Part shown: piece by piece, positions 7,661 to 48,702 of the stretch
How positions within the stretch are numbered: position 1 is the stretch's first letter
Layout of the letters: every line of letters begins with the position of its first letter
Origin: a candidate division FCPU426 bacterium
Lineage (GTDB): Bacteria > Oederibacteriota > Muellerivitia > Muellerivitales > Muellerivitaceae
Assembly: GCA_963771075.1 (NCBI GenBank)
Contig: CAVYSE010000011.1
Coordinates: 141,508-205,507 of the forward strand
Direction of reading: 5' to 3'
Length of the DNA stretch: 64,000 bases
Made by a program: the position numbers and the translations under genes
The notes under the pieces: model-generated
The model's database searches: none
Told to the model about the DNA's origin: nothing
The model's input: the letters and a program-made list of their open reading frames with translations, nothing else

Positions 7661-9973
7661 TTATTTGAGATTGATCTTTTTTAAAATTTTCCTCAGTTGT
7701 TCATCCCCGAATTTACCCACCGAGAAACCCCCAATCCGGCTGAGGGGCATCTCATTAATAAAGGCCATCAAGGCTTTGGTGGCCTTCTCAATATCGGCTT
7801 TTTCACGGGCGGAAAGCTTCTTGCTTCTAGAATCCCTCCCAATCGCACCGGCCAAACCGGTCGCCTTCAACAAAAGTTCATAATAGGTTTTACCCTTGGA
7901 ATGCCGGGCCACATCTTTCATCATGGATTCGGTGGTTAAAGTCTGAACAAATGTTTTATTCCCCGTGATCTTTATTGATTTCTTTAGGGGCAGGTCACGG
8001 GAGGAAGACCCCACCAGAATGTCATAAATGCCAGGGTTTACCCTTCGCCGGTGCAGGGTCGAGTCCCAATAACCCAATGAGCTTTCAGGGATGTTGAAGG
8101 CCACCTTTTTGGATTGGGCAGGGTTCAAAAGGACTTTCGAAAAGGCCTTGAGTTCCTTGTTGGGTCTCGCGACCTCGGGATTTTGTTCCCGGGTGTAAAG
8201 CTGGACCACTTCCTTACCCGGCCTTTTTCCGGTGTTCTTGATAGTGGCTTCCACATGAATCATCCGGGCCTTGTATGAAACCCTGAGGCGGGAATAGGTG
8301 AAGGTGGTGTAACAAAGCCCGAATCCGAAGGGGAAGAGGGGCTCGATCTTGCGAATGTCATAGTGACGGTATCCCACAAAGATTCCCTCGCCGTAATTGG
8401 CTTGGCATCCTAAACCCGGGAACTCAGGATAGGCCGGAGTGTCCTCCAGTCTTTGGGGAAAGGTTTCAGCCAGTTTGCCGCAGGGATTTGCCCTTCCAAG
8501 GAGGATGTCGGCGATGGCCCCGCCACCCGCCTGGCCTCCCAACCAAGCTTCCAAAACGGCCTTTGACTTCGAGATCCAGGGCATGGAAACCGCCGAACCA
8601 TTCATCAAAACCACGACTAGATTGGGTTGGGACTTGGCGATTTCCTCGATCAGCTTTTGATGTCCGGGGGGGAGATCGAGAGTTTTCCGGTCAAAACCTT
8701 CTGATTCGTAGCTGTCCGGTAAGCCCACAAAGAGCAGGGCGATATCGCTTTGTTCCGCCATGCGGCGGGCTTGGGAAAGGAGGACAGGCGTAATCTCTCC
8801 CTCTGGTTTGTATCCCGGTGCGAAAGAGAACTCGATCTTGTCTCCGGCCATTTTGACCAACTCCTCATATGCGCAGTCCAATTTCGTGGCGTTCACTTGT
8901 GAACTGCCAGCACCCTGGAAGCGGGGTTCCTGGGCGAAGGCTCCGATGACGGCTATTTTTAAATTTTTGTTTGGATTAAGGGGAAGCAGTCCGCCCTCAT
9001 TCTTGAGCAAGACCATGCTTTCGGCGGCGGCGATCCTGGCCAATTGATGGTGAGAGTTTTTGTTATAGGAAGCGTTCATTTTGCGACCTTCGGAGGCTTT
9101 GAGGACCACGGCCAGCAATTGCGTGGCGGCTTCATTCAATTTTTCGGTTTGGAGGCCGCCCTTTTGAACCGCCCTGATGATCTTGTCCCGGTTGTAGGGC
9201 CCGCTGCCCGGCATTTCCAAGTTCAGCCCGGCCTGGATACCCTTGATTCGGTCTTTCACCGCTCCCCAATCGGAAACCACAAAGCCCTGGAAGCCCCATT
9301 CTTTTCTCAAGACCTGGTTCATCAACCATGCGTCTTCCGAAACCTGGACTTCGTTGAGCCTGTTATAGGAGCACATGACGGCATAGGGCTGAGCTTCCCT
9401 GATGGGAATCTCGAAGGCCCGCAGGTAAATCTCACGCAGGGTCCGCTCGTCGATATTGGAGCTGGAGGTCATGCGTTCGTATTCCTGATTGTTGGCGGCA
9501 TAATGTTTAAGGGTGGCTCCCACCCCTTCGCTTTGGACTCCCCGAACGTGGGCGGCGGCCATCTTGCCGGCCAAGAGCGGGTCCTCGGAAAAATACTCGA
9601 AGTTGCGCCCGCCCAAAGGCGACCTTTTCAGGTTGTTGCCGGGTCCGAGCAAAAGCTGGACATCATTGGCCTGGCACTCCCTCCCTAAGGCCGCGCCCAC
9701 TTGTCCCAGTAGGTCCGGGTCCCAGGAGGAAGCCAGGCAGGAGGCGGTGGGGAAGCAGGTGGCGGGCACGCTGGAGGTGATATCCGCGCCTGTTGCCTTG
9801 CGAAGGCCGTGGGGCCCGTCTGTCATAAAGATGGAGGGAATACCCAACCGATCGAAGGCGCAGGTCTTCCACCAGCCATCGCCGGTGAGGAAGGTGGCTT
9901 TTTCCTTGAGAGTCATCCGTCTTACCCGTTTTTTCGCTTTCGACACGTATGGATTATTTTTGGGAAGGTGCAA
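7661..9973 (-). CDS. Glycoside hydrolase family 3 beta-glucosidase (BglX-like) with an extended C-terminal tail
   Basis: GH3 N- and C-domains are present (GFVVSDWGAV, KHYAANNQE). About 110 extra C-terminal residues are rich in K/E. The start may be TTG 9973 or ATG 9916. Confidence 0.85.
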   Translation of the reverse strand: MHLPKNNPYVSKAKKRVRRMTLKEKATFLTGDGWWKTCAFDRLGIPSIFMTDGPHGLRKATGADITSSVPATCFPTASCLASSWDPDLLGQVGAALGRECQANDVQLLLGPGNNLKRSPLGGRNFEYFSEDPLLAGKMAAAHVRGVQSEGVGATLKHYAANNQEYERMTSSSNIDERTLREIYLRAFEIPIREAQPYAVMCSYNRLNEVQVSEDAWLMNQVLRKEWGFQGFVVSDWGAVKDRIKGIQAGLNLEMPGSGPYNRDKIIRAVQKGGLQTEKLNEAATQLLAVVLKASEGRKMNASYNKNSHHQLARIAAAESMVLLKNEGGLLPLNPNKNLKIAVIGAFAQEPRFQGAGSSQVNATKLDCAYEELVKMAGDKIEFSFAPGYKPEGEITPVLLSQARRMAEQSDIALLFVGLPDSYESEGFDRKTLDLPPGHQKLIEEIAKSQPNLVVVLMNGSAVSMPWISKSKAVLEAWLGGQAGGGAIADILLGRANPCGKLAETFPQRLEDTPAYPEFPGLGCQANYGEGIFVGYRHYDIRKIEPLFPFGFGLCYTTFTYSRLRVSYKARMIHVEATIKNTGKRPGKEVVQLYTREQNPEVARPNKELKAFSKVLLNPAQSKKVAFNIPESSLGYWDSTLHRRRVNPGIYDILVGSSSRDLPLKKSIKITGNKTFVQTLTTESMMKDVARHSKGKTYYELLLKATGLAGAIGRDSRSKKLSAREKADIEKATKALMAFINEMPLSRIGGFSVGKFGDEQLRKILKKINLK

Positions 9974-10086: not shown

Positions 10087-11757
10087 TTAATGGATCAATA
10101 TAACTTTTTTGATCTCACGGTCATTGGGAACGGTTAAGTAAATAATGTAAATGCCGCTGGCGCAAGGGTTATTGGCGTAGTTCGTACCGTCCCAAGGGGG
10201 GCCGGGATAGGTGATGGGCTTAGAGGCGATTTGATCGGGAACCAGGGCTTTCACGAACTCTCCGGCGGAGTTGTAAATCTTTAAGGAATAGGGCCCTGGG
10301 AAGAGGCTGTATCCCACGAGGATGGAAAGGGGGCCTTGGGAGGGTTTAAAGACATTTTGGCTCACGTAAAAGCGGTCGGTATAGGGAATGGTCGCGGTGG
10401 GGGACAATGTGATCGTGGGTGTTAGGGTAATAGTCGGGGTCAAGGTGATGGTGGGCGTTAGGGTGATGGTGGGAGTTGAAGTATGGGTCGGGGTTAAGGT
10501 TTGGGTGGGGGTGTAGGTGGGAGTGGAGGTTTGAGTGGGGGTAAAGGTGTAGGTGGGAGTGGGTGTGACCGTAAGGGTAAGGGTGACCGTGGGCGAAAGG
10601 GTGATGGTAGGAGTCGGAGTGACGGTGAAGGTGTAGGTGAGGGTGGGTGTAAAGGTGGGCGTGGGCGTGATCGTCTGGGTGTTGGTTGGAACGCAATTGC
10701 CCGAAACGGGCAGGGCCACGGTGACAGGTGCGGAATTTGAACTGCCCCAACTTACCCCGGCGGCATTGAAGATGGAGCAGGGTGAGCCTTGAACCGTATT
10801 TAAATCGGCCAGGTAGTCCATCACAGTGACGCAAGCGCCATTGCCGCCGAAACCGAGCGGAAATTCGAAATCCATCGAGGATCCAATTTGCTGGGTGGAA
10901 TACATTTGGGAGGGCGGGCTGTAGCTGAGCCATGGCCCTTGGTACCCGCCAGTGGAAGCCAAGTTCTGGTCCCAAACCGTGACGGGGCCGTTGACGGGCG
11001 CTCCGCTGTTGCACACCACGAGGGTATAGGGCTCATTAGGGGTGTCGTTGGATTGGGGATAGGAAGAAAACCCCGGGATCAACTGGACGGAAAAGGTGGG
11101 AGGCGTGTAGGGGACCGGATTTAAATTAAAGGTCCCCAGGTAATAAAGATTTTGAAGGGCATTGGTGGCGGTTCCCGATGAGTTGAGGGAAGAGTCGGGC
11201 TGGATTTGGCCCGTCTCAGGGTTGTACATGGGTTGCAACCATGGGTCGTCCCCTGCGGCCACGGTGACTGGCAGGGTCGTGAAATATTCGGCGCTGACCG
11301 CGGCGGAATAATTGGGTGAATACCAGGGGTTGCCCGACCCATCCAGGGTGGGTGGGGCCGAGGCGGAAACGTCGTTGTACATCATGTAGCCCGGGTCGGT
11401 ATTGGAAAAATAAGCGTGGGAACCGCTGGCGCAGGCGACGTCAATGACCCAGGCGGCCTGTAGTGAAATCAGGGACGTGTTAAGGTTCTCAACGGCGACC
11501 GTATTGGAACCCGTGTTGAAATAACCTGCAGGGATGGGGAAAGTGGGAGGGACCCCGGGAGCGGTGACGAAGGTGACGGGCCCGATCGGGCCGTTCCCAT
11601 TGACCCAAACATCCATGATGTCATCGGCGGAGCCGTAGAGGGTGGCGGCGGAGGGGGAACAGGTTTGTGCCCAAGCGCTTACCGAGAAGCCCAAAAGGGA
11701 CCAAGCGATGAGCAGGATCGGTAAGGCTTTCTTAAGGGAGTTTGAAATCTTGTTCAA
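10087..11757 (-). CDS. Secreted Cys-containing protein with a long Thr-Pro-rich linker and a C-terminal por-secretion-type (TIGR04183/FlgD-Ig-like) sorting domain
   Basis: Signal peptide, then about 100 aa of TPTxT repeats. The C-terminus FYVSQNVFKPSQGPLSILVGYSL...LKIYNSAGEFVKAL...GIYIIYLTV...KKVILI matches the por_Secre_tail pattern. Starts at TTG. Confidence 0.7.
   Translation of the reverse strand: MNKISNSLKKALPILLIAWSLLGFSVSAWAQTCSPSAATLYGSADDIMDVWVNGNGPIGPVTFVTAPGVPPTFPIPAGYFNTGSNTVAVENLNTSLISLQAAWVIDVACASGSHAYFSNTDPGYMMYNDVSASAPPTLDGSGNPWYSPNYSAAVSAEYFTTLPVTVAAGDDPWLQPMYNPETGQIQPDSSLNSSGTATNALQNLYYLGTFNLNPVPYTPPTFSVQLIPGFSSYPQSNDTPNEPYTLVVCNSGAPVNGPVTVWDQNLASTGGYQGPWLSYSPPSQMYSTQQIGSSMDFEFPLGFGGNGACVTVMDYLADLNTVQGSPCSIFNAAGVSWGSSNSAPVTVALPVSGNCVPTNTQTITPTPTFTPTLTYTFTVTPTPTITLSPTVTLTLTVTPTPTYTFTPTQTSTPTYTPTQTLTPTHTSTPTITLTPTITLTPTITLTPTITLSPTATIPYTDRFYVSQNVFKPSQGPLSILVGYSLFPGPYSLKIYNSAGEFVKALVPDQIASKPITYPGPPWDGTNYANNPCASGIYIIYLTVPNDREIKKVILIH
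10395..10700. repeat. Degenerate tandem 9/18-nt repeats (GGT-rich on plus strand) encoding the TPTITL-type linker
   Basis: Repeated GGTGATGGTGGG / GGTGTAGGTGGGAGT units are visible. The alternative-frame His-rich ORF (10346-11014) is an artefact of this repeat. Confidence 0.7.
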
Positions 11758-16268: not shown

Positions 16269-17486
16269 TTATGGGTCATGCTGAAAAACGACCGGTTTGG
16301 AGGGTTTGTCGATGACTTGAATGGCCCAAGGCGTAGTAATAACCTGAAAGTGATACGAAGATAATTCTTCGATTTGGTAATGGACGATCAAGCGGTCGGT
16401 TCTGTCCTCCAACTTTAAAAGCCGAATGCGATATGCGCCATTCGGGGTTTGACCGTCTCCTAAAAGCACTACCGCTTGTTTTGAAAAATCTACTGGGGGC
16501 AGATCTTTTCCAGGCTGAAGTTTCATCCAATAATTCTTAAATGTTTCTTCGTCCGATAAAAGGATGGATTCGCCGCTCCCGCCGTCACTACCGCTCCAAC
16601 TTTGGGAAGGGAAGCCACCTGAAGTCGTTAAGGGAGCAAATTCGGATGGGGCGGGAGGGACGCCGGATTGAATCGCGCCGACAATGTTGTTCGCTGGAAC
16701 GGAAGCGGCCATGACCGTTGAAGCAACGCCCTTCTTCATCGCGAGTCTTGATCGGTTTTGATCATTCATTTCGAAAAGAGTTTCATCCGAAAGTGATTGC
16801 GCCGATTCGCGGGAGGGAGATGCCTCTAATCTTGAACCTGCCAGCGAGGAAAGGTCTTGGGTTTTGGAAGTTGCCCCCGTGGATCCGTTTCCCCCAAAGG
16901 GCTTTGCGGCGGGAACATTGGCCTGGGCCAACATTTTATTTGCCCCTAGGTTCATTCCGACCGATTGCTGTTGGATGGGTGTGTTCTGAATCGAGATATC
17001 TTTAGCTGGATTGGATTCGACTTTATACCTATTCGCGGATTTCGTTCCAAGACGGGGTTCCGAAGGGGAGGACTCTATTTTTTTAAAGGCAGCCTGGTCC
17101 GTAGGTTTGTCATAAATAGATGATGAAAAAGAAGTCTTTTCATTTGGCCTCATCACGTCCGGGTATTGAATTAGGAAAAAGAGGGTCAGGCAGGCCGCGA
17201 TTGCCAACCCAATAGCAGGGAATCGCCATTGAGATTTCTTCGCCGTTAAACCGAGGGAATTCTCATGAAGCCGTGTCATGATCCTTTCATGCAAATCCCT
17301 GGGAGGTTGGGGTTCGGGCGGGGAAGACATAGATTTGTGTAATTGATCATAAGCTTCTAGCTCGCCCTGGGCTTCGGCGCAAGTTTTCAGGTGGGTTTCG
17401 ACTTGTTTTTGTTGCGCGGGGGTTAAACCTTTTTCCCGGTAGAGCGCCAAAAGCGGATGAATTTTCCCGCAGTTCTTCATAACCAA
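16269..17486 (-). CDS. Anti-sigma factor (zf-HC2-like N-terminus, single TM, S/P-rich linker, uncharacterised C-terminal domain)
   Basis: The N-terminus CGKIHPLLALY...HLKTCAEAQ resembles zf-HC2 anti-sigma factors. One TM helix (AIGLAIAACLTLFFLI). Its start overlaps the stop of the ECF sigma gene. Confidence 0.6.
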   Translation of the reverse strand: MVMKNCGKIHPLLALYREKGLTPAQQKQVETHLKTCAEAQGELEAYDQLHKSMSSPPEPQPPRDLHERIMTRLHENSLGLTAKKSQWRFPAIGLAIAACLTLFFLIQYPDVMRPNEKTSFSSSIYDKPTDQAAFKKIESSPSEPRLGTKSANRYKVESNPAKDISIQNTPIQQQSVGMNLGANKMLAQANVPAAKPFGGNGSTGATSKTQDLSSLAGSRLEASPSRESAQSLSDETLFEMNDQNRSRLAMKKGVASTVMAASVPANNIVGAIQSGVPPAPSEFAPLTTSGGFPSQSWSGSDGGSGESILLSDEETFKNYWMKLQPGKDLPPVDFSKQAVVLLGDGQTPNGAYRIRLLKLEDRTDRLIVHYQIEELSSYHFQVITTPWAIQVIDKPSKPVVFQHDP

Positions 17487-18175
17487 TCCTTCAGTAGATT
17501 CTTCAGTATGGAGCGGCCCCTGGAAATGCGGGATTTCACCGTGCCAATTCCGATTTTCATGACCTGGGCGATTTGTTCATATTCCAAACCTTCGAAATCC
17601 CTTAGAACGACCGCTTCCTTGTATTCCAAAGGGAGGGTTTGAACTGCTCTTTGAATCGCCCCTTTCAATTCATCGCTTTCAACATTTCGTAATGCCGTGG
17701 GTGATTTCATATCTTCCGCATTTTCTATGGGGTCTCGGCCTTGTTCACCTTTTTCCATGGGCGTGAAGACCTGGAATTTGGAACGGGCGGTTCGGGAACG
17801 CAAAAGATTACGGGATGTATTGGCGGTGATGGCGTAAATCCATGTTTTCAAAGAGCTTTCCCCTCGAAATCGGGGTAGGGCATTGTGTATTTTTAAAAAA
17901 ACTTCCTGGGCGACATCGCTTGCGTCCGCCTCATGGTTTAGAAAGCGATAAGCGACCCGATAAACCATGTTTTCGAAATTTTTCACGAGTTTTTCAAACC
18001 CGTCATCTCCCGACAGGGCGGCTTGAATGAGAGCCAGATCCTCATCGTGGGAAATTCCGTTTGAGGAGCCGGTTGAGGAAAAGAACCATGCATGAAGATA
18101 TCTCAATAGAAGGTTTGACATGGGAAAGGGTGAAAAGTTCCCCAAAAAAGTGGAAAACTGGACTTGGGAAAACAT
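17477..18175 (-). CDS. ECF-subfamily RNA polymerase sigma-70 factor
   Basis: Region 2 (FEKLVKNFENMVYRVAYRFL...DASDVAQEVFLKI) and region 4 (LEYEQIAQVMKIGIGTVKSRISRGR) are present. The true start may lie internal, at about 18121. Confidence 0.8.
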   Translation of the reverse strand: MFSQVQFSTFLGNFSPFPMSNLLLRYLHAWFFSSTGSSNGISHDEDLALIQAALSGDDGFEKLVKNFENMVYRVAYRFLNHEADASDVAQEVFLKIHNALPRFRGESSLKTWIYAITANTSRNLLRSRTARSKFQVFTPMEKGEQGRDPIENAEDMKSPTALRNVESDELKGAIQRAVQTLPLEYKEAVVLRDFEGLEYEQIAQVMKIGIGTVKSRISRGRSILKNLLKDWL

Positions 18176-18428
18176 AATTTAGTTTAACATATGAAATAAT
18201 AAAGCTTGGATGGTTAGAGGAGTGACACTTTGAATAGGTTAGGAACAATGAAGGGGCCTTCAAAGGAGTCCACCTTTTAGTTCTTTTTTCATTTCCAAAG
18301 GGATTTCTAAGACCTTCGAAATAAAAATCTTGAAAAAAAGGAAATTAAACCTGAGATAAGTCATAGGACGTCTATATCGCTAAAGCTACATTCAAAGTCA
18401 TATAATGAAGGTCGTAAGGAGAGAATCC

Positions 18429-18608
18429 ATGCCAAGGAAAAAAGCCACAGAAGAGACCGTGAAGAAGCCGCGTTCATCCCAAAAGAAGGTGACCAAGGAA
18501 GAAATTGAAACCTTGGCCTATTATAAGTGGTTGGAAAGGGGATGCCCTCAAGATGATCCGAATATTGATTGGCTCGCCGCAGAAAAAGAATTGAATTCCA
18601 AATCTTGA
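18429..18608 (+). CDS. DUF2934 family small protein
   Basis: The C-terminal EEIETLAYYKWLERGCPQDDPNIDWLAAEKEL matches the DUF2934 consensus (EEIAxRAYELWexRG...DWLeAErEL). RBS AAGGAGAG precedes ATG 18429. Confidence 0.6.
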   Translation: MPRKKATEETVKKPRSSQKKVTKEEIETLAYYKWLERGCPQDDPNIDWLAAEKELNSKS

Positions 18609-18895
18609 TGGCAAAAAAGAATTGAGTTTGATTTTCAACGCTTGCGACAAAATCATTGTATGTTTTTAAGGCAATAAATTTTTTTAACTGATTTAAATCA
18701 TATTCCGAAGCAACTTAGAGTCGTATATTCACACTCGGTAGGTGGTTCTTGAAATGGCACCAATGAGGTGCCAACGGGGTCAAACCCGGCGTGGTAAGAA
18801 AAGAACCTCCTCCAAGACCCTGGGTGGCTCCCCTACCTGGGGTTTTTTATTTTCCGGGACTTTTTACGTTGGCTAGGTGCGAAATTAAAATGGAA

Positions 18896-19996
18896 TCAGG
18901 CGGGCTGGTAAGCGCAAAAGGGGTCCGCTCCCATGATGTCGCCCGTTAATGCATAGGCTCTTGCTCTCGACCCGCCGCAATGGTACCGGTATTCACACCG
19001 GCCGCATTTCCCTTTCAAAGAATCCGAATCTCTCAAGGTTTTAAACATCTCGTTTTCTTGGTAGATCTTGGAGAGGGGTTCAGTTTTGACGTTCCCTCCG
19101 GGTATCGGAAGAAATCCGCTTGGGCAAATCTCGCCAATATGGGAGATAAACACGAAGCCGCGGCCATCATTTACGCCCAAGGCAGCCCGGATCAGCCCAG
19201 GGCTTGTTCCGGCTTTCATTGCCTTTTCGAGTTCCTCCGGTTTCACCCCGGACCGTTGCAAAATGATGCGGCGGAAATGATGGGCTTCCGTTGTTTTAAT
19301 ATCAAACCAACCTTCCTTCAAAATGTCATAAAGCTGGTTCAAAACAACCTCGGATTCGCCCGCCGTGAGGGCCTGTTTTTTATCAGCTCGGCCTGTGGGG
19401 ACGAGAAAGAAGACGGACCAACGCTCAATGGCATAATCGCGGATGACCTTGGCGATTTCCCAAATCTGGTCCTGATTATGCCGGGAGACGGTGGTGTTTA
19501 CCTGAAGCTTGATTCCCAAGTCCTTAAGCCAGCCCATGGTTTCAACGCATCGGGCGAAAGTTCCCGGTATTCCGCGGAAGGTGTCGTGGGTGTTAGCGTC
19601 CGACCCGTCAATTGAGATGGAAACCCGGTTCAGGCCGGCTTTCTGCAACTCTTTCAATTTTTCAAGCGTAAGCAAGGGGGTGACCGAAGGTGCCAGCGCG
19701 AAGGTTAACTCCCGTTTCGAGCATTCCTGTATAAGCAAGGGAAGGTCATCCCTTTTTAGTGGGTCCCCGCCCGTGATCACAAAAAGGGGGATTTTCCATT
19801 CGGCGATTTGTCGGATGAGATCGAGGGCTTGGGGGGTGTCCAATTCCCCGGGGTAGGGTTTGGATTCGGCGCTGGCGCGGCAATGGACGCAGGCAAGGTC
19901 GCAGGCCCGGGTGGCCTCCCAAATGGCGATGAATGGTTTTTCCGAGTAACGATGGTTGGGTTTAGGACTAATGCCAACGTTAGGATGGTTATTCAT
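18896..19996 (-). CDS. Radical SAM enzyme with a C-terminal SPASM domain (peptide/cofactor maturase-like)
   Basis: CX3CX2C motif (TRACDLACVHC) near the N-terminus. The C-terminal SPASM-like cysteine cluster is GKCGRCEYRYHCGGSRARAY...FCAYQP. Confidence 0.8.
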   Translation of the reverse strand: MNNHPNVGISPKPNHRYSEKPFIAIWEATRACDLACVHCRASAESKPYPGELDTPQALDLIRQIAEWKIPLFVITGGDPLKRDDLPLLIQECSKRELTFALAPSVTPLLTLEKLKELQKAGLNRVSISIDGSDANTHDTFRGIPGTFARCVETMGWLKDLGIKLQVNTTVSRHNQDQIWEIAKVIRDYAIERWSVFFLVPTGRADKKQALTAGESEVVLNQLYDILKEGWFDIKTTEAHHFRRIILQRSGVKPEELEKAMKAGTSPGLIRAALGVNDGRGFVFISHIGEICPSGFLPIPGGNVKTEPLSKIYQENEMFKTLRDSDSLKGKCGRCEYRYHCGGSRARAYALTGDIMGADPFCAYQPA

Positions 19997-20269
19997 TTTC
20001 TCCCCTTAAAATTGTTCAAGACCAGTTTGGTTGAATTCATCAGGCGAAAAACAAGGAAGACACCTACCAGAATTACTCGACCTTTACGCTATTGTATAGC
20101 CGTAATTGAATAGGGGTTATGACAAGGGCCATCTTTCCTGGCACCTGCACGATAATTCCGTTTATTTTATAACTTCCACACTGGAACTCAATCGATGTTT
20201 GAGGTTATATCTATTCCTGGGTCTCCTTTACTCAAATGAAGTTGTGTTTCAGGTATTGCCGAAATGCGA

Positions 20270-20287
20270 TTATGACACCTCTCATAA
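20270..20287. promoter_or_regulatory. Palindromic motif site TTATGAC-acct-CTCATAA (~85 nt upstream of the hemerythrin gene)
   Basis: One mismatch to the 7-4-7 consensus TTATGAC-N4-GTCATAA. A weaker copy lies at 20117-20134. Confidence 0.45.
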
Positions 20288-20370
20288 CCGGGGTTTGATT
20301 TCTTGAATAATATCAGTCGTGGGCAGGCGGTAGGCCACAAATGGATGGAATTTAAAATCTAAGGGGAAAA

Positions 20371-20781
20371 ATGAGTTTGATCGATTGGAAGGACAATTAC
20401 AGTGTTGAGATCGTTGAAATAGACCATCAACATCAGGGTTTTTTCCGACTGATCAACGGTCTTTATGACGCCCTGATCGAGGAAAAAGAAAAGGATTCTT
20501 TAGGGGCGATCATCCTTGAGTTGGAAGCCTACGCGAAAAATCACTTCAAAACCGAAGAAGACTACTTTATCGAATGGGATTTTCCCGGTGCGGAAAAACA
20601 CCGGTTGGAGCATGAGACCTTTACTCGAAACTTGGCCCGGTTTAAAGCCGGGTTCGAGTCGGGTGTCCAAATCGGCATTTCGGTTCAGTTATTGAGTTTT
20701 CTCAGTGCCTGGTTGAAAAACCATATTTTGGTCAGCGACCATCAATACGCCGATTTTATAAAGCAAAAAGCCGTGAAATAA
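20371..20781 (+). CDS. Bacteriohemerythrin (hemerythrin HHE cation-binding domain)
   Basis: The sequence ...W.DNYSVEIVEIDHQHQGFF...HF..EE..F...DFPGAEKHRLEHE shows the typical His/Glu diiron ligands. Confidence 0.8.
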   Translation: MSLIDWKDNYSVEIVEIDHQHQGFFRLINGLYDALIEEKEKDSLGAIILELEAYAKNHFKTEEDYFIEWDFPGAEKHRLEHETFTRNLARFKAGFESGVQIGISVQLLSFLSAWLKNHILVSDHQYADFIKQKAVK

Positions 20782-21722: not shown

Positions 21723-22460
21723 ATGAAAATCAGTCCCGATTGGACGGTTCGGGAAGTCGCTTCGCAAATCCAAGCTTCCATTCCGCTTTTTGAATCGCTT
21801 CATATTGACTATTGTTGCAATGGCCAACAAACATTGAAAGAGGCCTGTGTTACTTTGGAAATCCCCGTGGAAAAAGTCTTGGATTCGCTAGAGCGCATGG
21901 TGAACAAAACCCCCTCCAATCCAGATGCGCCCAACCCATGGGCTAAAAAAAGTATTCCGGAGCTTATTGACCATATCCTGGAAATCCATCACCCATTCAC
22001 GCGAGTCCAGCTCAATCGATTGATGAAATTGTCCGAAAAGGTTTCGCGCCTACATGCGGTCCGCCATCCCGAATTGATCCAATTGAACGGTTTGTTGGTC
22101 AAAATGGCCGAGGAGTTGGAAAGCCACATGGTGAAGGAAGAAGAAGTGGTTTTCCCCTGCCTCCGGAAACTTTGGGATTCGAGGCGAAAGAGAAAAAAAT
22201 TGGAAAATCCTTTTTTCCAAGGGGGGCAGGAAGATCCGGTCCATGTACTCGTCTGGGAACATGGAATGACAGGGGAGGAATGGCAAGAAATCCACCGTTT
22301 AACCAAAGATTACACCACGCCCGCGGATGCTTGCGTGTCCTATCGGTCCCTGTACCAGGGGTTGAAAGAGCTGGAGGATGATTTGCACCGGCACATTCAC
22401 CTGGAAAATAACATCCTATTTTACCGTCTCCAGCAATTGGGACTTTTGGGCTCCCTTTGA
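21723..22460 (+). CDS. Iron-sulfur cluster repair di-iron protein (RIC / YtfE / ScdA family)
   Basis: N-terminal ScdA_N motif (LHIDYCCNGQQTL) followed by hemerythrin-like His/Glu repeats. Confidence 0.8.
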   Translation: MKISPDWTVREVASQIQASIPLFESLHIDYCCNGQQTLKEACVTLEIPVEKVLDSLERMVNKTPSNPDAPNPWAKKSIPELIDHILEIHHPFTRVQLNRLMKLSEKVSRLHAVRHPELIQLNGLLVKMAEELESHMVKEEEVVFPCLRKLWDSRRKRKKLENPFFQGGQEDPVHVLVWEHGMTGEEWQEIHRLTKDYTTPADACVSYRSLYQGLKELEDDLHRHIHLENNILFYRLQQLGLLGSL

Positions 22461-22500
22461 TTCATCCGAAGCGACAACTCAAGAAAGGCTGCTTTTTCAA

Positions 22501-23280
22501 ATGATGACCATGAATCAAATGGACCTAAGGGGGATTGCCCACGGCTGGGAGCAAAAAATCCTTTCCGCTTTTGATGGTTTGAACGAGGGACAAGCGTTGG
22601 AAATCCTCGTGGATTGGGACCCAACCCCACTACATTTCCTGTTATTGAAGGAAAGAACCAGGCTTTTCCGATGGGAAAACCGGGAAAAAAAACCGGATCA
22701 TTGGAAGATCCGCCTCCTGCGAGTGGCGCATGGATTGGGGGAAGCCCCGGCCTCGGAACCGCCGGTTTTGACTCCCCGGCCTAACATCAGCCCGCGACCC
22801 GCCTGGATTGACGATTTGAACCCTTCCTGTGGACTTTTTTTGGACATTCGACCCCTTACTGAGAAAGGGCTGGACCCCTTTCAAATGATTGTCCAATCGG
22901 CGAAAGAGTTAAAACCCGGCCAACACCTGCACTTGGTCCAAAATGAGCAGCCGGAGTCTTTTATTTGTGCCCTGGGTCGGTTAGGGTATGAGGGGTTTGC
23001 CGAAATGAAAGGCGGGGTTTGGAACGCCTATTTCCGAAAGGGTAAGATTCCGCCCACCGGCCAACCGGTAATGGAACTGGATGTGAGACGGTTGACGCCG
23101 CCCCTTCCACTATTGAAGGTGCTGGAATCCCTTCCCTTGATCTCATCGGAAGGCGTTTTGAAGGTATTCTTCCCAAATCGCCCGGATAGTTTGATCGAGA
23201 AACTCCAGGCGCATGGTTTTGAGGTGAAGTGGGAAGCTTCCGAGGGTGGGGCGTTTGTACTTTGGATATGGAAAAAATAA
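22501..23280 (+). CDS. Protein composed of three tandem DUF2249-like modules
   Basis: Three repeats of the pattern LD[LIV]R.L.P..P...[IV]......L..G..L.[VL].....P: LDLRGIAHGWEQKIL..., LDIRPLTEKGLDPFQMIV..., LDVRRLTPPLPLLKVL.... The ORF in the track extends upstream (22378) in overlap with ytfE. ATG 22501 is the first start after the ytfE stop. Confidence 0.6.
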   Translation: MMTMNQMDLRGIAHGWEQKILSAFDGLNEGQALEILVDWDPTPLHFLLLKERTRLFRWENREKKPDHWKIRLLRVAHGLGEAPASEPPVLTPRPNISPRPAWIDDLNPSCGLFLDIRPLTEKGLDPFQMIVQSAKELKPGQHLHLVQNEQPESFICALGRLGYEGFAEMKGGVWNAYFRKGKIPPTGQPVMELDVRRLTPPLPLLKVLESLPLISSEGVLKVFFPNRPDSLIEKLQAHGFEVKWEASEGGAFVLWIWKK

Positions 23281-31052: not shown

Positions 31053-31841
31053 ATGGGCTTGTTTCCAAGATTGTTTTTGATTTCTCTCTTCTGTGCCAAT
31101 CGGGTATTTGCCGATACTGCTCCCTGGTTTCCCAAAAACATATCAGCGGATGGGGACCGGATCGACAACCTGGTCATATTCTCCTTTTGGGTGACCGGAA
31201 CCTTCTTTGCCATTGTCGTTCTAGCCTTGATCCTCTTTCCTCTTTTCTACCGGTCCCGTCCCGGGCACAAGGCTTTTTATACCCACGGTACGGGATTGTT
31301 CGAACGGATTGTCACCTTCGCCCTGGCTGCGACCGTTTTCGGCGTGATCGACCTGAACGTGATCCACCGTTCCAACGAGGATTACGACGTTCTTTACGGT
31401 AAGCAATACGACCGGGCACAGGCCTTGCGCGTGGAGGTTCAGGGCCGCCAGTTCGAGTGGCGCATCCGTTATTCCATCGACAACAAAACCTTCGGGACAG
31501 TCCAGGACATCACCACCTTAAACCAACTCCATATCCCGGTAAACCGGCCGGTGTTCGTACAGGTCACGTCCGGAGATGTCATCCATAGCTTTTACCTTCC
31601 GAACCTCCGTATCCGACAAGACGCCATGCCGGGCCTAGTGACCCAGGTGGCCTTTGAGGCCAAGGAAAAAGGCCAGTTCACCCTCGCCTGTTCCGAGCTT
31701 TGCGGCCTGGGCCATTACCGGATGAAGGGTTACTTGACAGTGGAGGATGAGGCGGATTTTGATAAGTTTTTAGCCGATGCCGCCAAGGACCGGGACCCCG
31801 ATCCCGCCAACAATTGGGGTTGGGCATGGGAGGAGAGATAA
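31053..31841 (+). CDS. coxB: Cytochrome c oxidase subunit II (CuA-binding)
   Basis: Two N-terminal TM helices. CuA ligands are present in DVIHSF...CSELCGLGHYRM. Confidence 0.85.
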   Translation: MGLFPRLFLISLFCANRVFADTAPWFPKNISADGDRIDNLVIFSFWVTGTFFAIVVLALILFPLFYRSRPGHKAFYTHGTGLFERIVTFALAATVFGVIDLNVIHRSNEDYDVLYGKQYDRAQALRVEVQGRQFEWRIRYSIDNKTFGTVQDITTLNQLHIPVNRPVFVQVTSGDVIHSFYLPNLRIRQDAMPGLVTQVAFEAKEKGQFTLACSELCGLGHYRMKGYLTVEDEADFDKFLADAAKDRDPDPANNWGWAWEER

Positions 31842-31842
31842 C

Positions 31843-33564
31843 ATGAGCGATCACGCGCATTCCGAACCGACTTCCTTTTGGACGAAGTATATTTTCTCGC
31901 TGGACCACAAGGTCATTGGCCGGCAGTTCCTTTTTTACGGGTTGTTCTTCCTCCTGACCGGCGGCATTATGGCCTACCTGATCCGTTGGCAAGTCGCCAA
32001 CCCCTGGACCCCCGCGCCGGTCTTCGGACCGCTGCTGTTCCCCAACTCGGGCGGGGCGGCTACTCCCGAGATCTACACCACCCTGATCACCCTGCACGGG
32101 ACCATCATGATCTTCTTCGCCATCACTCCGATCGCCATCGGGGCACTGGGCAATTTTCTGATCCCGCTCCAGATCGGGGCGAGGGATATGGCCTTCCCCA
32201 TCCTCAACATGCTTTCCTTTTGGCTGATGCCCATCGCCGGCGTACTTTTGATGATGTCCTACTTCGGTGAACAGACGGCCTCCGCCGGCTGGACGGGCTA
32301 TCCCCCTTTGAGTTCCGCCACCTATACGCCCGGCGCCGGTGAAACCCTCTGGGCCCTGGCGGTGGTGATCCTGGGAACTTCCTCCATCATGGGGGGGATC
32401 AATTACGTCACCACTTGCATTAATTTAAGGGCGAAGGGGATGACGATCTGGAAACTTCCCCTTTCGGTCTGGGGGCTCTTCCTCACCGCCGTCCTTAACC
32501 TGGCCTTCGTACCGGTCATCGCGGTGGGTTTGATCATGTTGATCTTCGACCGTACCTGCGGCACCCACTTTTTCACCGGGGTGGCCATCAATCCGGCCCA
32601 AGCCGGCCAGCCTCTTTTATACCAGCATATTTTCTGGGCCTTCGGGCATCCCGAAGTTTACATCCTGATCCTTCCCATCTGGGGCGTGGTGTCGGACGTT
32701 TTGGCGGTGTTCGCGCGAAAGCCGGCTTTCGGTTACAAGCTAACGGCCCTCTCCATGTTCGTCATCACCTGCCTAAGCACGGTGGTCTGGGGCCATCACA
32801 TGTTCATATCCGGCATGAGCCCGGCCATGGGCAAAGCCTTCCAGTCCCTAACCATGCTGATTTCGATCCCCTCTTCCATTTTCTTCTTCAATTGGCTCGC
32901 GACCCTCTGGCGGGGAAACCTGCAATTCAAAACACCCATGCTTTTCGCGATGGGGGTCATTTTCGTATTCGCAATCGGCGGGTTAACAGGGATCCTTTTG
33001 GCTTCCCGCACCATGGATATTTATTTCCACGGGACCTATTTCGTGGTGGCCCACTTCCACTACACGATGGCCATGTCGGTATTCCTGGGTTCCTTCTGCG
33101 CCATCTATTTCTGGTTCCCGAAAATGTTCGGGAGGATGATGAACGAGATTTTGGGGAAATTGCATTTCTGGATCACTTTTGTTTCGGTCAATGTGGTGTT
33201 CCTGGTTATGTTCCGGGTCGGGATGGCGGGCCTGATGCGACGGGTGGCGGACCCCTATGCCTACGAAGTGTTCAAACCCCTGCAGCCCTTGAACCAGATC
33301 ATCACCTACGGGGTCATGGTGATGGGTACGGCCCAATTGATCTTTATTTTCAATTTCTTTTTCAGCATGTTCTTCGGCAAGAAGGCCGAGGATAACCCCT
33401 GGCATGCCGCCACATTGGAATGGACGGTCCCGTCGCCGCCCCCCCACGCGAATTTCGGGGAGGAACTGCCTGTCGTGATCAATGGACCCCATGAGTACGG
33501 CAACCCAGCCGTGAAAGGAAAGGATTTCCTGCTGCAAACAGAACCCGTGCCCGACGCGGGCTAA
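31843..33564 (+). CDS. coxA: Cytochrome c oxidase subunit I (heme-copper oxidase catalytic subunit)
   Basis: 12-TM heme-copper oxidase with conserved His ligands (WAFGHPEVYILILP, HHMF..., VVAHFHY). RBS GGGAGGAGAG precedes ATG 31843, right after the coxB stop. Confidence 0.9.
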   Translation: MSDHAHSEPTSFWTKYIFSLDHKVIGRQFLFYGLFFLLTGGIMAYLIRWQVANPWTPAPVFGPLLFPNSGGAATPEIYTTLITLHGTIMIFFAITPIAIGALGNFLIPLQIGARDMAFPILNMLSFWLMPIAGVLLMMSYFGEQTASAGWTGYPPLSSATYTPGAGETLWALAVVILGTSSIMGGINYVTTCINLRAKGMTIWKLPLSVWGLFLTAVLNLAFVPVIAVGLIMLIFDRTCGTHFFTGVAINPAQAGQPLLYQHIFWAFGHPEVYILILPIWGVVSDVLAVFARKPAFGYKLTALSMFVITCLSTVVWGHHMFISGMSPAMGKAFQSLTMLISIPSSIFFFNWLATLWRGNLQFKTPMLFAMGVIFVFAIGGLTGILLASRTMDIYFHGTYFVVAHFHYTMAMSVFLGSFCAIYFWFPKMFGRMMNEILGKLHFWITFVSVNVVFLVMFRVGMAGLMRRVADPYAYEVFKPLQPLNQIITYGVMVMGTAQLIFIFNFFFSMFFGKKAEDNPWHAATLEWTVPSPPPHANFGEELPVVINGPHEYGNPAVKGKDFLLQTEPVPDAG

Positions 33565-33579
33565 AGACAAAGGCTTTTT

Positions 33580-33664
33580 CCACGAAGTTCACAACGGGCA
33601 CAAAGTAAAAAAATTATTTTGATAAAGCCAAGCATTTACTTTGTGGTCTTTGTGTACTTCGTGG
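33580..33664. repeat. Long imperfect inverted repeat (30-nt arms, 26/30 complementary, 25-nt loop) between coxA and coxC
   Basis: The left arm CCACGAAGTTCACAACGGGCACAAAGTAAA (33580-33609) is complementary to TTTACTTTGTGGTCTTTGTGTACTTCGTGG (33635-33664). Confidence 0.6.
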
Positions 33665-33690
33665 TGAGAAATGTTTTTTAAGGAGAAACA

Positions 33691-34275
33691 ATGAGTTCTG
33701 AAGCAATAAACGAAGAATCCTACACCGGATTTCCCACCGCCCGCATGGGCATGCTGATCTTTTTGATCTCTGAAAGCATGATGTTCGTAACGCTCATCTC
33801 GGGGTATCTGGTGCTTCGCGCCAGTCAAACCGCTTGGCCTCCTGCCAACCAACCCCATTTGAACGTGCTCTTGACCGGCATCAACACTTTTTTCCTGATC
33901 TCCTCCAGCGTAACCTTCCATTTTGCCGAGGTTTATTTTCGCAAAAGCCAAAAAGGAAAGTTCCTGGCCTGGCTTGGAGCGACCATCCTTCTGGGAACGA
34001 CCTTCCTGACCATCCAGGCCTTCGAGTACAGCCGGCTCATGTTCGGGACTTTGAGCCTTTCTTCCTCTACCTACGGTTCGGTTTTCTTCTCCCTGACGGG
34101 GTTTCACGGGCTTCACGTGTTCGTCGGAATATGCCTCCTCAGCCTTATTTTTTGGCGTTTGTCAGCGAACAAGCTTTCCAAAACGGACCACCACTTGGTG
34201 GATAACATCGGGCTTTACTGGCACTTCGTGGACGGGGTATGGATCGTTCTCTTTTCCGTGCTTTACCTTTGGTGA
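33691..34275 (+). CDS. coxC: Cytochrome c oxidase subunit III
   Basis: Conserved ...GFHGLHVFVGICLL...LYWHFVDGVWIVLF motifs and 5 TM helices. RBS AGGAG lies 5 nt upstream. Confidence 0.85.
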   Translation: MSSEAINEESYTGFPTARMGMLIFLISESMMFVTLISGYLVLRASQTAWPPANQPHLNVLLTGINTFFLISSSVTFHFAEVYFRKSQKGKFLAWLGATILLGTTFLTIQAFEYSRLMFGTLSLSSSTYGSVFFSLTGFHGLHVFVGICLLSLIFWRLSANKLSKTDHHLVDNIGLYWHFVDGVWIVLFSVLYLW

Positions 34276-38323: not shown

Positions 38324-38645
38324 CCACTCAAGGGATCTTCTCCACCCCCGAGTGGAGGGTTTCCTGGTAATTTTTTATCTTGCTATTTAAAGGAGAAATA
38401 CCTTTTCCACTGGTTTTGTTGAAAAAGCGTTATTCGAAAATTTGAAGAGAATTGATCCGGAATAGAACCGTTGAACAATGAGGGGTTTAAAAGAGTCGAT
38501 AAGGTTGCAGGCCATTTGTCGTGGCAATCATTTTCCTTTGGCGCATCGTTTGTCGAAGAAAATTTGGATGACCAACGTCATAGACAAAGGATTGGGTAGG
38601 CGACAAACTACCACGAATTTATTTTTTTATTTCCAGGGAGGAAAT

Positions 38646-40628
38646 ATGGCACCCGAAAAGCAATCCATCACTTCTTTGCAGAAGGATTCCGCAGTGACAT
38701 TCCCGCCTCCGGCCTCGGTGGCCTCCAAGGCATTTATCGGATCCTTCCAAAAGTACCAGGAAATGTATGACCGCTCCGTGAAGGATTCCCACAAGTTTTG
38801 GCTTGAACAAGCCACGAATGAACTGGTTTGGTTCAAGAAACCCACGAAAACACTGGAGTGGACTTGGGACACCTCCAAAAGGAAAATTCAGCATTCCTGG
38901 TTTTCGGATGGCGAGTTGAATTTATCGGTGAACTGTTTGGACCGTCACCTAGCCAAGAACGGAAATAAGATCGCTATCCTTTGGCAGGGCGAAAAGGATG
39001 AGGAAGTCCGTAAAATCACCTATTCTCAATTGCATGAGATGGTTTGTCGGTTCGCCAACGTGCTGCTTGCTAAGGGGGTCAAGAAAGGGGATCGGATCTG
39101 TGTTTATATGCCGATGATCCCCGAGGCGGCGGTGGCCTTGCTCGCTTGCGCCCGAATCGGTGCCATCCACTCCTTCGTTTTCGGCGGTTTTAGCGCGGAG
39201 GCGTTGAAAACCCGCATTCAGGATTCCCAAAATGTGTTGGCCATCACCACGGACGTGAGCTACCGATCTGGAAAAGCAATCGGATTGAAGAATATTCTTG
39301 ATGAGGCCCTCAAGGAATGCCCTACCATCAAGAACGTCATTGTCTACAAGAGGGGTGACGGAAAGGTCAACATGCAGGCCGGCCGGGACAGCTGGTGGGA
39401 TGAGGAGACCCAAAAGGCCAGTCCCAAGCATGAGGCCCAGCCGATGAACGCGGAAGACCCGCTTTTTATCCTGTATACCTCTGGATCCACTGGAAAACCG
39501 AAAGGGGTCCTTCACACGACCGGCGGTTATATCTTACACGCCGCCCTGAGCCACCGCCTCATTTTCGACTGCCATCCCGAGGACACCTATTGGTGCACTG
39601 CCGACATCGGTTGGGTCACGGGCCACAGTTACATCGTCTATGGCCCCCTGGCCAACGGCGTCACATCGATCATGTTTGAGGGAGTACCCACCTACCCAGA
39701 TTCTGGTAGGTTCTGGCAAGTGATCGCCAAACATAAAGTCACCATCTTTTATACCGCGCCCACCGCGATCCGTTCCCTGATGCGAGAAGGGGAAGAATGG
39801 CCGAAAAAGCACGACTTGAGCTCCTTGCGCATCCTGGGCTCGGTCGGTGAACCAATCAATCCCGAGGCATGGTTGTGGTATCACAGGAACATTGGCCAAA
39901 GCCGCTGTCCTATCGTCGATACCTGGTGGCAGACGGAAACGGGTGGTATTTTGATCACCCCACTTCCGGGTGCCCATACTTTAAAACCTGGGAGCGCCTC
40001 TCTTCCCTTTTTCGGGGTGGAGCCCATCGTAGTGGATAATGACGGGAAAGAATGCGCCAGAAACGAAGGCGGAAAACTGTGCATTAAGAAGCCCTGGCCG
40101 GGCATGGCCCGCACCATGTGGGGGGATCACGAACGTTTCATCGACACCTATTTCACCGCTTTCCCCAACCTTTATTACACAGGGGACGGTTGCCGCGTCG
40201 ATCAGGACGGAGATTACTGGCTCATGGGCCGGGTGGATGATGTGGTGAACATCTCTGGACACCGTATCGGGACGGCGGAAGTGGAAAGCGCGCTTGTTTC
40301 CCATCCCAAGGTTTCGGAAGCGGCGGTGGTGGGCTATCCCCACGACATCAAAGGATCGGCCCTTTACGCTTACGTGACCGTGAAGGAGGGCGTGACGCCG
40401 TCAGATGAGCTGAAGAAAGAACTGGTTCAGCATGTGCGCAAGGAAATCGGTCCCATTGCCCAACCGGACAAGATCCAGTTCGCGGAGGCGATGCCCAAGA
40501 CCCGCAGCGGCAAAATCATGCGCCGGATCTTGAGGAAAATAGCAGAGAATGAAACGGGTAATCTGGGCGATATTTCCACCCTGGCCGACCCGTCCGTCGT
40601 GGAAAGGCTGATCCAAGGAAAGCAATAA
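38646..40628 (+). CDS. acs: Acetyl-CoA synthetase (AMP-forming)
   Basis: The N-terminus ...[16 protein letters not shown]..., AMP-binding motif [11 protein letters not shown] and C-terminal ...[17 protein letters not shown] (acetylatable Lys motif) are present. RBS GGGAGG precedes ATG 38646. Confidence 0.9.
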
Positions 40629-40654
40629 ACACTATTTAGGAAGTTGTCAGAAAA

Positions 40655-40697
40655 TAAAAAAAGCAGGCTGGTTTAAAAACCAGCCTGCTTTTTTTGA
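40655..40697. terminator. Bidirectional rho-independent terminator between acs and the convergent DRTGG gene
   Basis: Perfect 11-bp stem GCAGGCTGGTT-taaaa-AACCAGCCTGC, flanked by an A-run upstream and a T-run downstream. Confidence 0.85.
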
Positions 40698-40704
40698 CTA
40701 AACC

Positions 40705-45739: not shown

Positions 45740-45886
45740 TTGGTTTTCATTCCATTCGCAAAACCGGGCGCTTACCGGGCTTTGGAGAACCATCCGCCGG
45801 CCAAGAATCACCGAAGAGAAAGTAGGGCCGGAGACCGCTTAACCCTTTCAAGGACGCGTTGATTATAAGTTAATGACCCTTTCATG

Positions 45887-45904
45887 CTATGACTCAAGTC
45901 ATAT
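45887..45904. promoter_or_regulatory. Palindromic motif site CTATGAC-tcaa-GTCATAT, with an overlapping degenerate copy at 45871-45888
   Basis: Lies in the divergent region between the CoA-transferase/pat operon (minus) and the deacetylase gene (plus). Confidence 0.5.
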
Positions 45905-46090
45905 CATGAAGGGGCGGGGTTAATTTTTTCCCAAAGGACGAAATTATTAACAACACTCATTTCATTATTGGATAATTGTCCGGACAAAAACAATTGAACT
46001 TGGTGAAATTACCTTAACTTGACTTAGCCAAAGGACAAAATTAACATGCATTATTATTTTCATTTTTTTTAGTTTTTTAAAAGGCCAAGA

Positions 46091-47044: not shown

Positions 47045-47186
47045 TTCAATTTTTGGTTTTCACTTTGCAGAAATAGAAGCGCCTTTCTCTTTTCCATGAC
47101 TGTCTCCTAAATTTCCATTTTAAATGTTTTTGTCCTCCTGTTTATTTACGCTGTGACTTTGAATGATTTATTGTCACAAATGTTTA

Positions 47187-47204
47187 ACATGACAACTGTC
47201 ATAA
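47187..47204. promoter_or_regulatory. Palindromic motif site ACATGAC-aact-GTCATAA (~120 nt upstream of the beta-barrel gene)
   Basis: Matches the 7-4-7 consensus with one flank mismatch. Confidence 0.5.
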
Positions 47205-47325
47205 TAACTTCACCCCGCTGGTCCTAAAATCGCTTCTCGTTGATTCTTTTCCCACGACAATCAATTGACCTCCCGGATTTTGTCGGTTCGCGAGAGCGAA
47301 AAAAACTTTCAAGGAGAAAGAAAAT

Positions 47326-48558: not shown

Positions 48559-48582
48559 TCGAGCCTTAAGGGAACATTTTTC

Positions 48583-48650: not shown

Positions 48651-48702
48651 CGGTTGATCGGATGGGCTTGTGCGTATTCATCTAATAAAGGAGGCAGGAA
48701 CA

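Follow-up and report, generated by a model that had tools for sequence, protein, structure and literature searches.

A predicted small RNA gene converges on an AhbD-like radical SAM gene in candidate division FCPU426, and both carry a putative CRP/FNR-type promoter box

We analyzed a locus in a 64-kb stretch of DNA from a candidate division FCPU426 bacterium (contig CAVYSE010000011.1); we refer to this whole stretch as the window. An earlier note had flagged positions 18609 to 19996 as an orphan radical SAM (S-adenosylmethionine) enzyme with a structured element and a cryptic small open reading frame (ORF) next to it. The interval is made up of a minus-strand ORF of 366 amino acids (aa) at 18896-19996 and a 287-nucleotide (nt) intergenic stretch (18609-18895). 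The ORF is thus as the note had it, but the flagged start also covers the intergenic region, and the gene itself spans only 18896-19996. In the nearest genomic relatives, which are metagenome-assembled genomes labelled candidate division FCPU426, the radical SAM protein is 78-82% identical. We consider it fairly probable that the locus contains two independent genes in convergent orientation, both part of a single regulon: an AhbD-like enzyme of family TIGR04053 and a small RNA (sRNA) of about 115 nt, both under the control of a CRP/FNR-type activator. Within this reading, we infer the pathway role of the enzyme, the inducing signal, the link from the promoter box to the regulator, and the mode of action of the RNA. 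The features at the center of the argument are:

18896-19996, minus strand: radical SAM enzyme of family TIGR04053 (AhbD-like), 366 aa, assigned from its NCBIfam score, invariant residues, and the operons of homologs
about 18736-18853, plus strand: conserved small non-coding RNA gene, about 115 nt, predicted from covariance-model homologs, conservation, and fold energy
18737-18813, plus strand: 5' three-way junction of the sRNA in the predicted fold, with P1 (18744-18750/18801-18807, outer pairs 18737-18738/18812-18813), P2 (18755-18761/18767-18773), and P3 (18775-18778/18785-18788)
18814-18853, plus strand: intrinsic terminator of the sRNA from a terminator scan, with a 14-bp stem (18814-18846, loop CUCCC) and then TTTTTTATTTT (T-run 18843-18853)
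18754-18876, plus strand: 40-codon ORF, judged to be non-coding because of start loss, frameshifts, and a moving stop

The GC-rich hairpin and T-run that the earlier note had described are indeed present, and in related genomes they are part of a longer conserved element. We found this element downstream of the radical SAM gene in loci L001, L002, L003, and L026 and in metagenome contigs L020-L023, which were retrieved by searching for the terminator core (18822-18842). The core is invariant in all homologs, as is the hairpin loop CUCCCC. A covariance model (R1), built from nine copies, gives these copies 118-154 bits, with one copy per locus. In all eight loci with enough flanking sequence, the sRNA gene is convergent with the 3' end of the radical SAM gene, and it ends 46-130 nt from that gene's stop codon. 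The convergent pair is kept even in L026, which lacks the DUF2934 gene and has different outer neighbors on both sides (TatA/ResB and HxlR). Across loci, the sRNA is 80-97% identical to the window, as compared to 70-75% for the adjacent radical SAM coding DNA and 29-51% for the spacer between the two genes. The conservation of the transcript starts about 7-8 nt after a TATATT hexamer. We placed the 5' end of the sRNA from this −10 element and from the start of conservation; because the promoter features, the start of conservation, and the terminator together bound the transcript, its length should be about 115 nt. In more distant loci, whose radical SAM proteins are at most 68% identical (L027, L028, and L039), model R1 gave only terminator-level matches of 18-20 bits, even with the filters off.

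The element also has a stable predicted fold. For the 121-nt stretch 18735-18855, the folding energy is −54.1 kcal/mol (z = −4.1 versus shuffles), and no shuffle folds as well. A C-rich linker, CCUCCUCC, lies between the three-way junction and the terminator hairpin. In the alignment, 96.7% of cells pair, and where only one side changes, the change still allows pairing (G-C to G-U); P3 differs in L003 and L026 and is still a hairpin. Rfam 15 has no match at gathering thresholds in the whole window or in four related loci, two of which have the sRNA, and ARAGORN found no tRNA or tmRNA. (Chance-level Rfam matches on 18550-18950, with E values up to 10, were to a miRNA, NsiR1, and the His leader; all had E of 0.2 or worse and were far under the gathering scores. 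The junction was also compared by eye to hammerhead and purine-riboswitch cores, and the core sequences differ.) From its conservation, predicted promoter, and terminator, we conclude that the element is a previously undescribed, putative sRNA of a familiar kind that is restricted to a sub-clade of FCPU426. The earlier note had offered a terminator, an sRNA, or a small peptide as options; the evidence supports the sRNA and not the peptide.

The peptide option concerned the 40-codon ORF. As the note described, there is an ATG at 18754, a stop codon ending at 18876, a basic predicted peptide, and an AGGTGG 8 nt upstream that resembles a ribosome binding site. But the AGGTGG is the 5' strand of P1, the helix that closes the RNA junction. 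When we checked for conservation, the ORF was not kept as a protein. Its first ATG is missing in L001 and L003. In L001, deletions of 1 nt and 2 nt put the stretch between them into another frame, and in L020, a 1-nt deletion alters the whole C-terminal half. The number of codons to the stop varies from 33 to 69 across relatives. In the window, the stop codon (18874-18876) lies 23 nt past the end of the terminator's T-run and would be missing from a terminated transcript. On this comparative evidence, the ORF is incidental to the conserved RNA sequence and appears to be spurious as a gene.

The radical SAM protein has the CX3CX2C motif (C32/C36/C39) and the group of C-terminal cysteines (C291, C331, C334, C340, and C361) that had been read from the sequence. 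Pfam finds Radical_SAM at 82 bits, a weak SPASM match (18 bits, under the gathering score), and a weak Fer4_12 match. The equivalog-level NCBIfam model TIGR04053 scores 447.2 bits against a curated cut-off of 395, and it aligns residues 16-365 to model positions 2-366 of 366. The second-best NCBIfam model is that for heme b synthase AhbD (TIGR04545; 336.9 bits, full length, E = 1.5e-100), followed by NirJ2, AhbC, and NirJ. Several models for maturases of ribosomally synthesized and post-translationally modified peptides (RiPPs) match partially at 100-125 bits, all far under their cut-offs. In an alignment of 20 homologs (47-80% identity), C32, C36, C39, C331, C334, C340, C361, and S343 are invariant, and C291 is not conserved. 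The protein is a full member of TIGR04053 with no difference that sets it apart: it is above the cut-off over its whole length and has all of the family-invariant residues. We found no paper in a full-text literature search on the name TIGR04053, NCBI gives the family no functional name, and a PDB sequence search returned PqqE, BlsE, and SkfB as the nearest solved chains and no AhbD structure.

The cysteine pattern points towards AhbD. All AhbDs share CX3CX2C and a C-terminal CX2CX5CX20-38C that binds the auxiliary cluster AuxII (Fix et al., 2023, PMC10452713). The C-terminal motif C331-X2-C334-X5-C340-X20-C361, which is invariant in our 20-homolog alignment, fits this pattern. Four extra cysteines, for cluster AuxI, occur only in the AhbDs of methanogens and sulfate reducers, and non-methanogen archaeal AhbDs have Ser or Glu in their place (PMC10452713). 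In TIGR04053, the CX2C position after C340 is the invariant Ser343, and the full SPASM motif of 7-8 cysteines (two auxiliary clusters) is absent, as only four C-terminal cysteines are conserved. Compared to the AhbDs of Methanosarcina barkeri and Desulfovibrio vulgaris (TIGR04545), then, the protein has full-length homology, both shared motifs, and close relatives in the AhbD position of siroheme-dependent (AHB) heme operons. Unlike them, it is under the model's cut-off, it lacks three of the four AuxI cysteines (as do the non-methanogen archaeal AhbDs), and it stands alone without ahbA, ahbB, or ahbC, among genes for hemerythrin and the RIC protein.

The operons of two homologs give further context. 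P0089 (49% identical) scores 478 bits with TIGR04053, which is higher than the window protein, and only 366 bits with TIGR04545. It is encoded between an AhbC-like radical SAM gene and a fused AhbA/B gene, which are followed by genes for siroheme synthase, HemA, HemC, CobA-HemD, and HemB. P0073 (52% identical) is in a similar operon, and HemL is among the heme genes of these operons. Within the stretches that we fetched, P0089 and P0073 are the sole candidates for the AhbD step in these operons. No ahbA, ahbB, ahbC, siroheme, or other heme genes were found near the radical SAM gene in the window; we saw them only for P0089 and P0073. The gene's neighbors vary between loci. Stand-alone homologs repeatedly adjoin genes for RIC/ScdA, NorB, hemerythrin, ResB/cytochrome bc, and CRP/FNR regulators; for example, the L026 gene adjoins ResB and cytochrome bc genes. 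Also, the Joint Genome Institute (JGI) labels many close homologs "AdoMet-dependent heme synthase."

As to pathway, a 2026 review describes bacteria with the coproporphyrin-dependent pathway that have AhbD alone, and suggests that it may be their anaerobic decarboxylase, as an alternative to ChdC (PMC13564367); the anaerobic coproheme decarboxylase of such bacteria was still called unknown in 2024 (PMC10965808). Because of the AhbD cysteine motifs, the operon context of the homologs, and the annotation and literature, we propose that the enzyme is most likely an oxygen-independent coproheme decarboxylase (heme b synthase), which would catalyze the last step of heme synthesis. It is a stand-alone member of TIGR04053, an AhbD-type clade that retains the radical SAM cluster and, of the auxiliary clusters, just the C-terminal one (AuxII). 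The organism uses heme, as an aa3-type cytochrome oxidase is encoded in the window, and an oxygen-independent conversion of coproheme to heme b would serve it at low oxygen or in the presence of nitric oxide (NO). The earlier note had treated the protein as an orphan of unassigned function. Since it is above the cut-off of an equivalog-level family whose members hold the AhbD place in complete heme operons, it is not an orphan of unknown type. The note had stated that its reading would fall if the enzyme belonged cleanly to a housekeeping family such as AhbD or if the small ORF lacked conservation, and on both counts the results largely go against it.

What connects the two genes is their predicted promoters. 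The promoters with the shared arrangement, and the candidate regulator, are:

18689-18729, plus strand: sRNA promoter, with box TGATTTAAATCA (18689-18700), a variable 23-nt spacer, and −10 element TATATT (18724-18729)
20091-20132, minus strand: predicted radical SAM gene promoter, with box ATGACAAGGGCCAT (20119-20132, plus-strand reading), 23 nt, and −10 element TACAAT (20091-20096)
20273-20313, plus strand: hemerythrin promoter, with box TGACACCTCTCA, 23 nt, and −10 element TAATAT
18352, 21623, 35424 (minus strand), and 47190: further promoters with the same box and spacing, for DUF2934, RIC/ScdA, a second hemerythrin-domain gene, and a porin
49598-50296, plus strand: CRP/FNR-family transcription factor, 232 aa (Pfam cNMP_binding and HTH_Crp_2), candidate regulator of the boxes, with its own upstream box at 49465-49478

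In nine of nine sRNA copies, a TGA-N6-TCA box (cTGATTTAAATCAt) is exactly 23 nt from TATATT; the half-sites are invariant and the 23 nt vary freely, with no conserved −35 element in any of the nine. If transcription starts 7 nt after the −10 element (at about 18736), then the fixed 23-nt gap puts the center of the box near −41.5. Class II CRP/FNR activators sit near −41.5. The sRNA promoter is probably activator-dependent. The radical SAM promoter of L001 and L002 has the full palindrome TTATGAG(C/A)CTTGTCATAA (TTATGAGnCTTGTCATAA) with the same 23-nt spacing and a TAAATT −10 element, and the window's box ATGACAAGGGCCAT is one mismatch from that palindrome. Within the window, the geometry TGA-N6-TCA(T), 23 nt, TANNNT has 6 exact matches versus 0.08 expected, and TGA-N6-TCAT occurs 28 times versus 6.8 expected. 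Most of these 28 are full ATGAC-N4-GTCAT palindromes in intergenic DNA. Such palindromes are at 20272, 21622, 24858, 36292, 38308, 38568, 45889, 47189, and 49465, and the adjoining genes encode hemerythrin, RIC, a phosphoribosyltransferase, VIT1/histidine kinase, acetyl-CoA synthetase, acetyl-CoA hydrolase/deacetylase, a porin, and SatP-region proteins. The set points to a large putative regulon that mixes stress and acetate-metabolism genes.

The candidate regulator's own box is the palindrome ATGACTGAAATCAT, which suggests that it is autoregulated. Its sensor domain has an unusual CCC-X7-C cysteine motif, and its recognition helix, TVETCIR, resembles TVETISR of E. coli FNR. (It was picked up by Pfam and not by tblastn with E. 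coli FNR and CRP queries.) We propose that this regulator probably activates the sRNA, the radical SAM enzyme, the two hemerythrin-domain genes, RIC/ScdA, and DUF2934 together. The presence of hemerythrins, RIC, and an oxygen-labile enzyme in the regulon points to oxygen or NO as the signal. Loci of Acidobacteriaceae type seem to provide independent support for CRP/FNR-type control from another phylum: in L004-L010, L030, and L035, a (G)TGAC-N4-GTCAC palindrome lies about 60-100 nt upstream of the start of the TIGR04053 gene. Also, the TIGR04053 gene is divergent from a CRP/FNR-family regulator in L005, L007, L008, L035, and L036, and RIC and NorB are nearby in L030-L032 and L035. The control of hemN by Anr/Dnr in Pseudomonas and the DNR/HcpR-type nitrosative-stress regulons resemble the arrangement proposed here, with an oxygen-independent radical SAM heme-synthesis enzyme under a CRP/FNR-family activator, together with RIC/dnrN-type genes. 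They differ in that here the enzyme is AhbD-like and not HemN, the half-site is TATGAC, and the regulator has CCC-X7-C.

How might the RNA act? As there is no gene downstream on its strand, we consider it to be an sRNA rather than a leader or a riboswitch. Its exposed conserved segments are the linker CCUCCUCC, the loop CUCCCC, and a purine-rich junction, GUGGUAAGAAA. Other redox-controlled sRNAs use C-rich segments against Shine-Dalgarno sequences, and the linker and loop here could pair in the same way. By analogy to sRNAs that are controlled by FNR or NO, it probably acts in trans on mRNAs. We compared it to two known groups. Like FnrS of E. coli and other sRNAs activated by FNR or Anr, it is short, stand-alone, and terminator-ended, with a TGA-N6-TCA box at a predicted class II position; unlike them, it is found only in this FCPU426 sub-clade, has a different predicted fold, and has no similarity to them by sequence or in Rfam. 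Like RoxS/RsaE of Firmicutes, it has C-rich single-stranded motifs for which Shine-Dalgarno sequences are possible partners, and a link, here predicted, to redox or NO control; it is not homologous to RoxS/RsaE, which are under two-component systems and Rex and not a CRP/FNR box. A 7-nt match between the loop (CUCCCCU) and the Shine-Dalgarno sequence of the radical SAM gene (AGGGGAG) is not kept in L003, and we discarded it as a candidate target site. Across five loci, no complementarity of 8 nt or more between the sRNA and the 5' untranslated region (UTR) of the radical SAM gene is conserved.

Several results count against parts of the two-gene regulon that we propose. Target predictions for the sRNA, both by duplex energy and by complementarity, gave nothing above background: across 50 translation-initiation regions, the best whole-length duplex energy was −51.1, as compared to a mean best of −50.5 for shuffled sRNAs. 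Because the real energy is no better than the shuffled ones, this prediction is uninformative. None of the 34 pairs in the fold has a two-sided compensatory change, which is no better than shuffles, and the homologs are too similar for testing the fold. The start site of the sRNA, and with it the position of the box at −41.5, is inferred from sequence. Because the acetate-metabolism genes share the box, the signal may not be oxygen or NO, and a broader metabolic regulator would fit as well. As for the enzyme, we found no activity assay for any TIGR04053 member, the score of 336.9 bits is under the AhbD model's cut-off of 500, and there is no second heme biosynthesis gene anywhere in the window. 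An alternative is that the protein, as a tetrapyrrole- or stress-related enzyme, belongs to the NirJ/AhbC/AhbD superfamily but does not decarboxylate coproheme and catalyzes some other reaction, for example in a function confined to nitrosative stress alongside RIC, NorB, and hemerythrin. The score under the AhbD cut-off, the lack of an NCBI name for TIGR04053, and the clustering of stand-alone members with stress genes and not with heme genes would all fit. But in AHB operons that are otherwise complete, the sole AhbD candidates are two members that score higher with TIGR04053 than the window protein does, and the AhbD-specific cysteine motif is invariant, so we regard a different reaction as doubtful. 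It is far less plausible, to the point of being extremely unlikely, that the enzyme is a RiPP or other peptide maturase whose precursor we missed, or that the 40-codon ORF encodes a real basic peptide. The weak SPASM match, the partial matches to RiPP models, and the ATG with AGGTGG upstream could be read that way. However, the RiPP models are far under their cut-offs, and cysteines for only a single auxiliary cluster are conserved; Pfam found no PqqD/RRE peptide-recognition domain; and no conserved small ORF adjoins the gene, which agrees with the earlier note's failure to find a precursor. (The sole co-directional small ORF nearby, at 20188-20340 with 50 aa and a TTG start, has no counterpart in relatives.) Also, indels break the 40-codon ORF in two loci (L001 and L020), its first ATG is missing from L001 and L003, and it overruns the terminator. 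So, the enzyme does not appear to be a peptide maturase.

The RNA has rivals of its own. The element could belong to the DUF2934 gene as its 3' UTR and terminator, or it could be a bidirectional terminator that the DUF2934 and radical SAM genes share. Since no terminator is visible between the DUF2934 stop codon and the element, read-through from DUF2934 is plausible, and there is no other terminator after the radical SAM stop codon and there is an A-run on the other side of the hairpin. Yet the L026 locus, without the DUF2934 gene upstream, has the element and its box-plus-TATATT promoter intact; the roughly 80 nt upstream of the hairpin are better conserved than coding DNA, which a terminator does not require; and, read on the minus strand, the hairpin has just 2-4 U after it. 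We judge this explanation to be quite unlikely. The weak look of minus-strand termination bears on another idea, that the RNA acts in cis and not in trans, as an antisense to the 3' end of the radical SAM mRNA via convergent read-through. The convergent pair is strictly kept at 46-130 nt, even where both outer neighbors change, and this strict pairing may fit either a cis-antisense effect on the 3' end or plain terminator sharing. But there is no evidence of radical SAM transcripts that reach into the sRNA gene, and as the two genes carry the same activator box, co-induction and not opposition is expected, which makes a cis-antisense role very unlikely in our view. We also considered that the sRNA and the AhbD-like gene form a conserved functional module: the RNA would be a new class of CRP/FNR-dependent riboregulator, in which a three-way junction and an invariant C-rich hairpin would tune heme or iron-protein expression at low oxygen. 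The RNA might do so by sensing a metabolite with its aptamer-like junction or by acting on the converging radical SAM transcript. This is speculative and, we think, unlikely. We still favor two independent genes in one regulon.

The other genes around the locus are:

16269-17486, minus strand: anti-sigma factor
17477-18175, minus strand: sigma factor of the extracytoplasmic function (ECF) type
18352-18608, plus strand: DUF2934 small protein gene, probable start at 18430 (Pfam DUF2934, E = 1.4e-10), with the same box-plus-spacing promoter at 18352-18392
20371-20781, plus strand, divergent from the radical SAM gene: bacteriohemerythrin (NF033749 at 127 bits)
beyond the hemerythrin, all on the plus strand: RluA-type pseudouridine synthase, RIC/ScdA, DUF2249, nitronate monooxygenase, phosphoribosyltransferase, and ZIP transporter
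31053-34275: aa3-type cytochrome oxidase (COX2, COX1, COX3)

Searches of the surrounding genes agreed with the earlier note that there are no pqq, mft, or heme d1 neighbors. The DUF2934 gene is upstream of the sRNA in most relatives, with L026 as the exception. A palindrome, TTGATTTTCAA, lies directly after the DUF2934 stop codon at 18614-18634; it is in the same place in L020 and L022, there is a variant in L023, and it is not in L001-L003. The longest ORF for DUF2249 (22378-23280) overlaps the end of the RIC/ScdA gene (21723-22460) by about 80 nt; as the public gene call is shorter (256 aa), its true start is probably downstream. A cluster of acetate/acyl-CoA genes at 38478-49302 encodes an AMP-forming acetyl-CoA synthetase, a DRTGG/AAA_26 protein, an ADP-forming acyl-CoA synthetase-like protein, an acetyl-CoA hydrolase/transferase, a deacetylase, an OmpL-like porin, and a SatP/YaaH channel. 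Farther away, a GH3 glycosidase (7661-9973) and other genes flank a predicted secreted protein of 556 aa (10087-11757, minus strand) that has a long run of TPTxT-type threonine/proline repeats. Finally, more distant FCPU426-like genomes share a conserved non-coding region, about 450 nt long, that precedes genes for phosphoribosyltransferase or ScdA (L027 10690-11110 and L039 12566-13030, both minus strand). In L039 it begins after a TGATCCAGATCAT box, and in both loci it has two copies of GGGGACTGAGGTCCCAAACC and a terminator at its end; Rfam has no match for it, and the window does not contain it.

This analysis removes a false lead, as the locus does not appear to encode an orphan RiPP enzyme or a cryptic peptide. 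By comparison across relatives, it also strengthens the case that TIGR04053, a family without a name, is a form of heme synthase AhbD that lacks AuxI, which bears on the question of which enzyme carries out anaerobic coproheme decarboxylation in organisms where the other steps of the siroheme route are missing. Stand-alone TIGR04053 copies seem to be under CRP/FNR-type control beside genes for NO and oxygen stress in at least two phyla. We believe that the sRNA is the first candidate regulatory RNA for candidate division FCPU426 (a literature search on the family name alone found no paper). The most useful new point is the predicted CRP/FNR-type promoter that the two genes share: it gives candidate division FCPU426 a candidate regulon motif, (T)ATGAC-N4-GTCAT(A).

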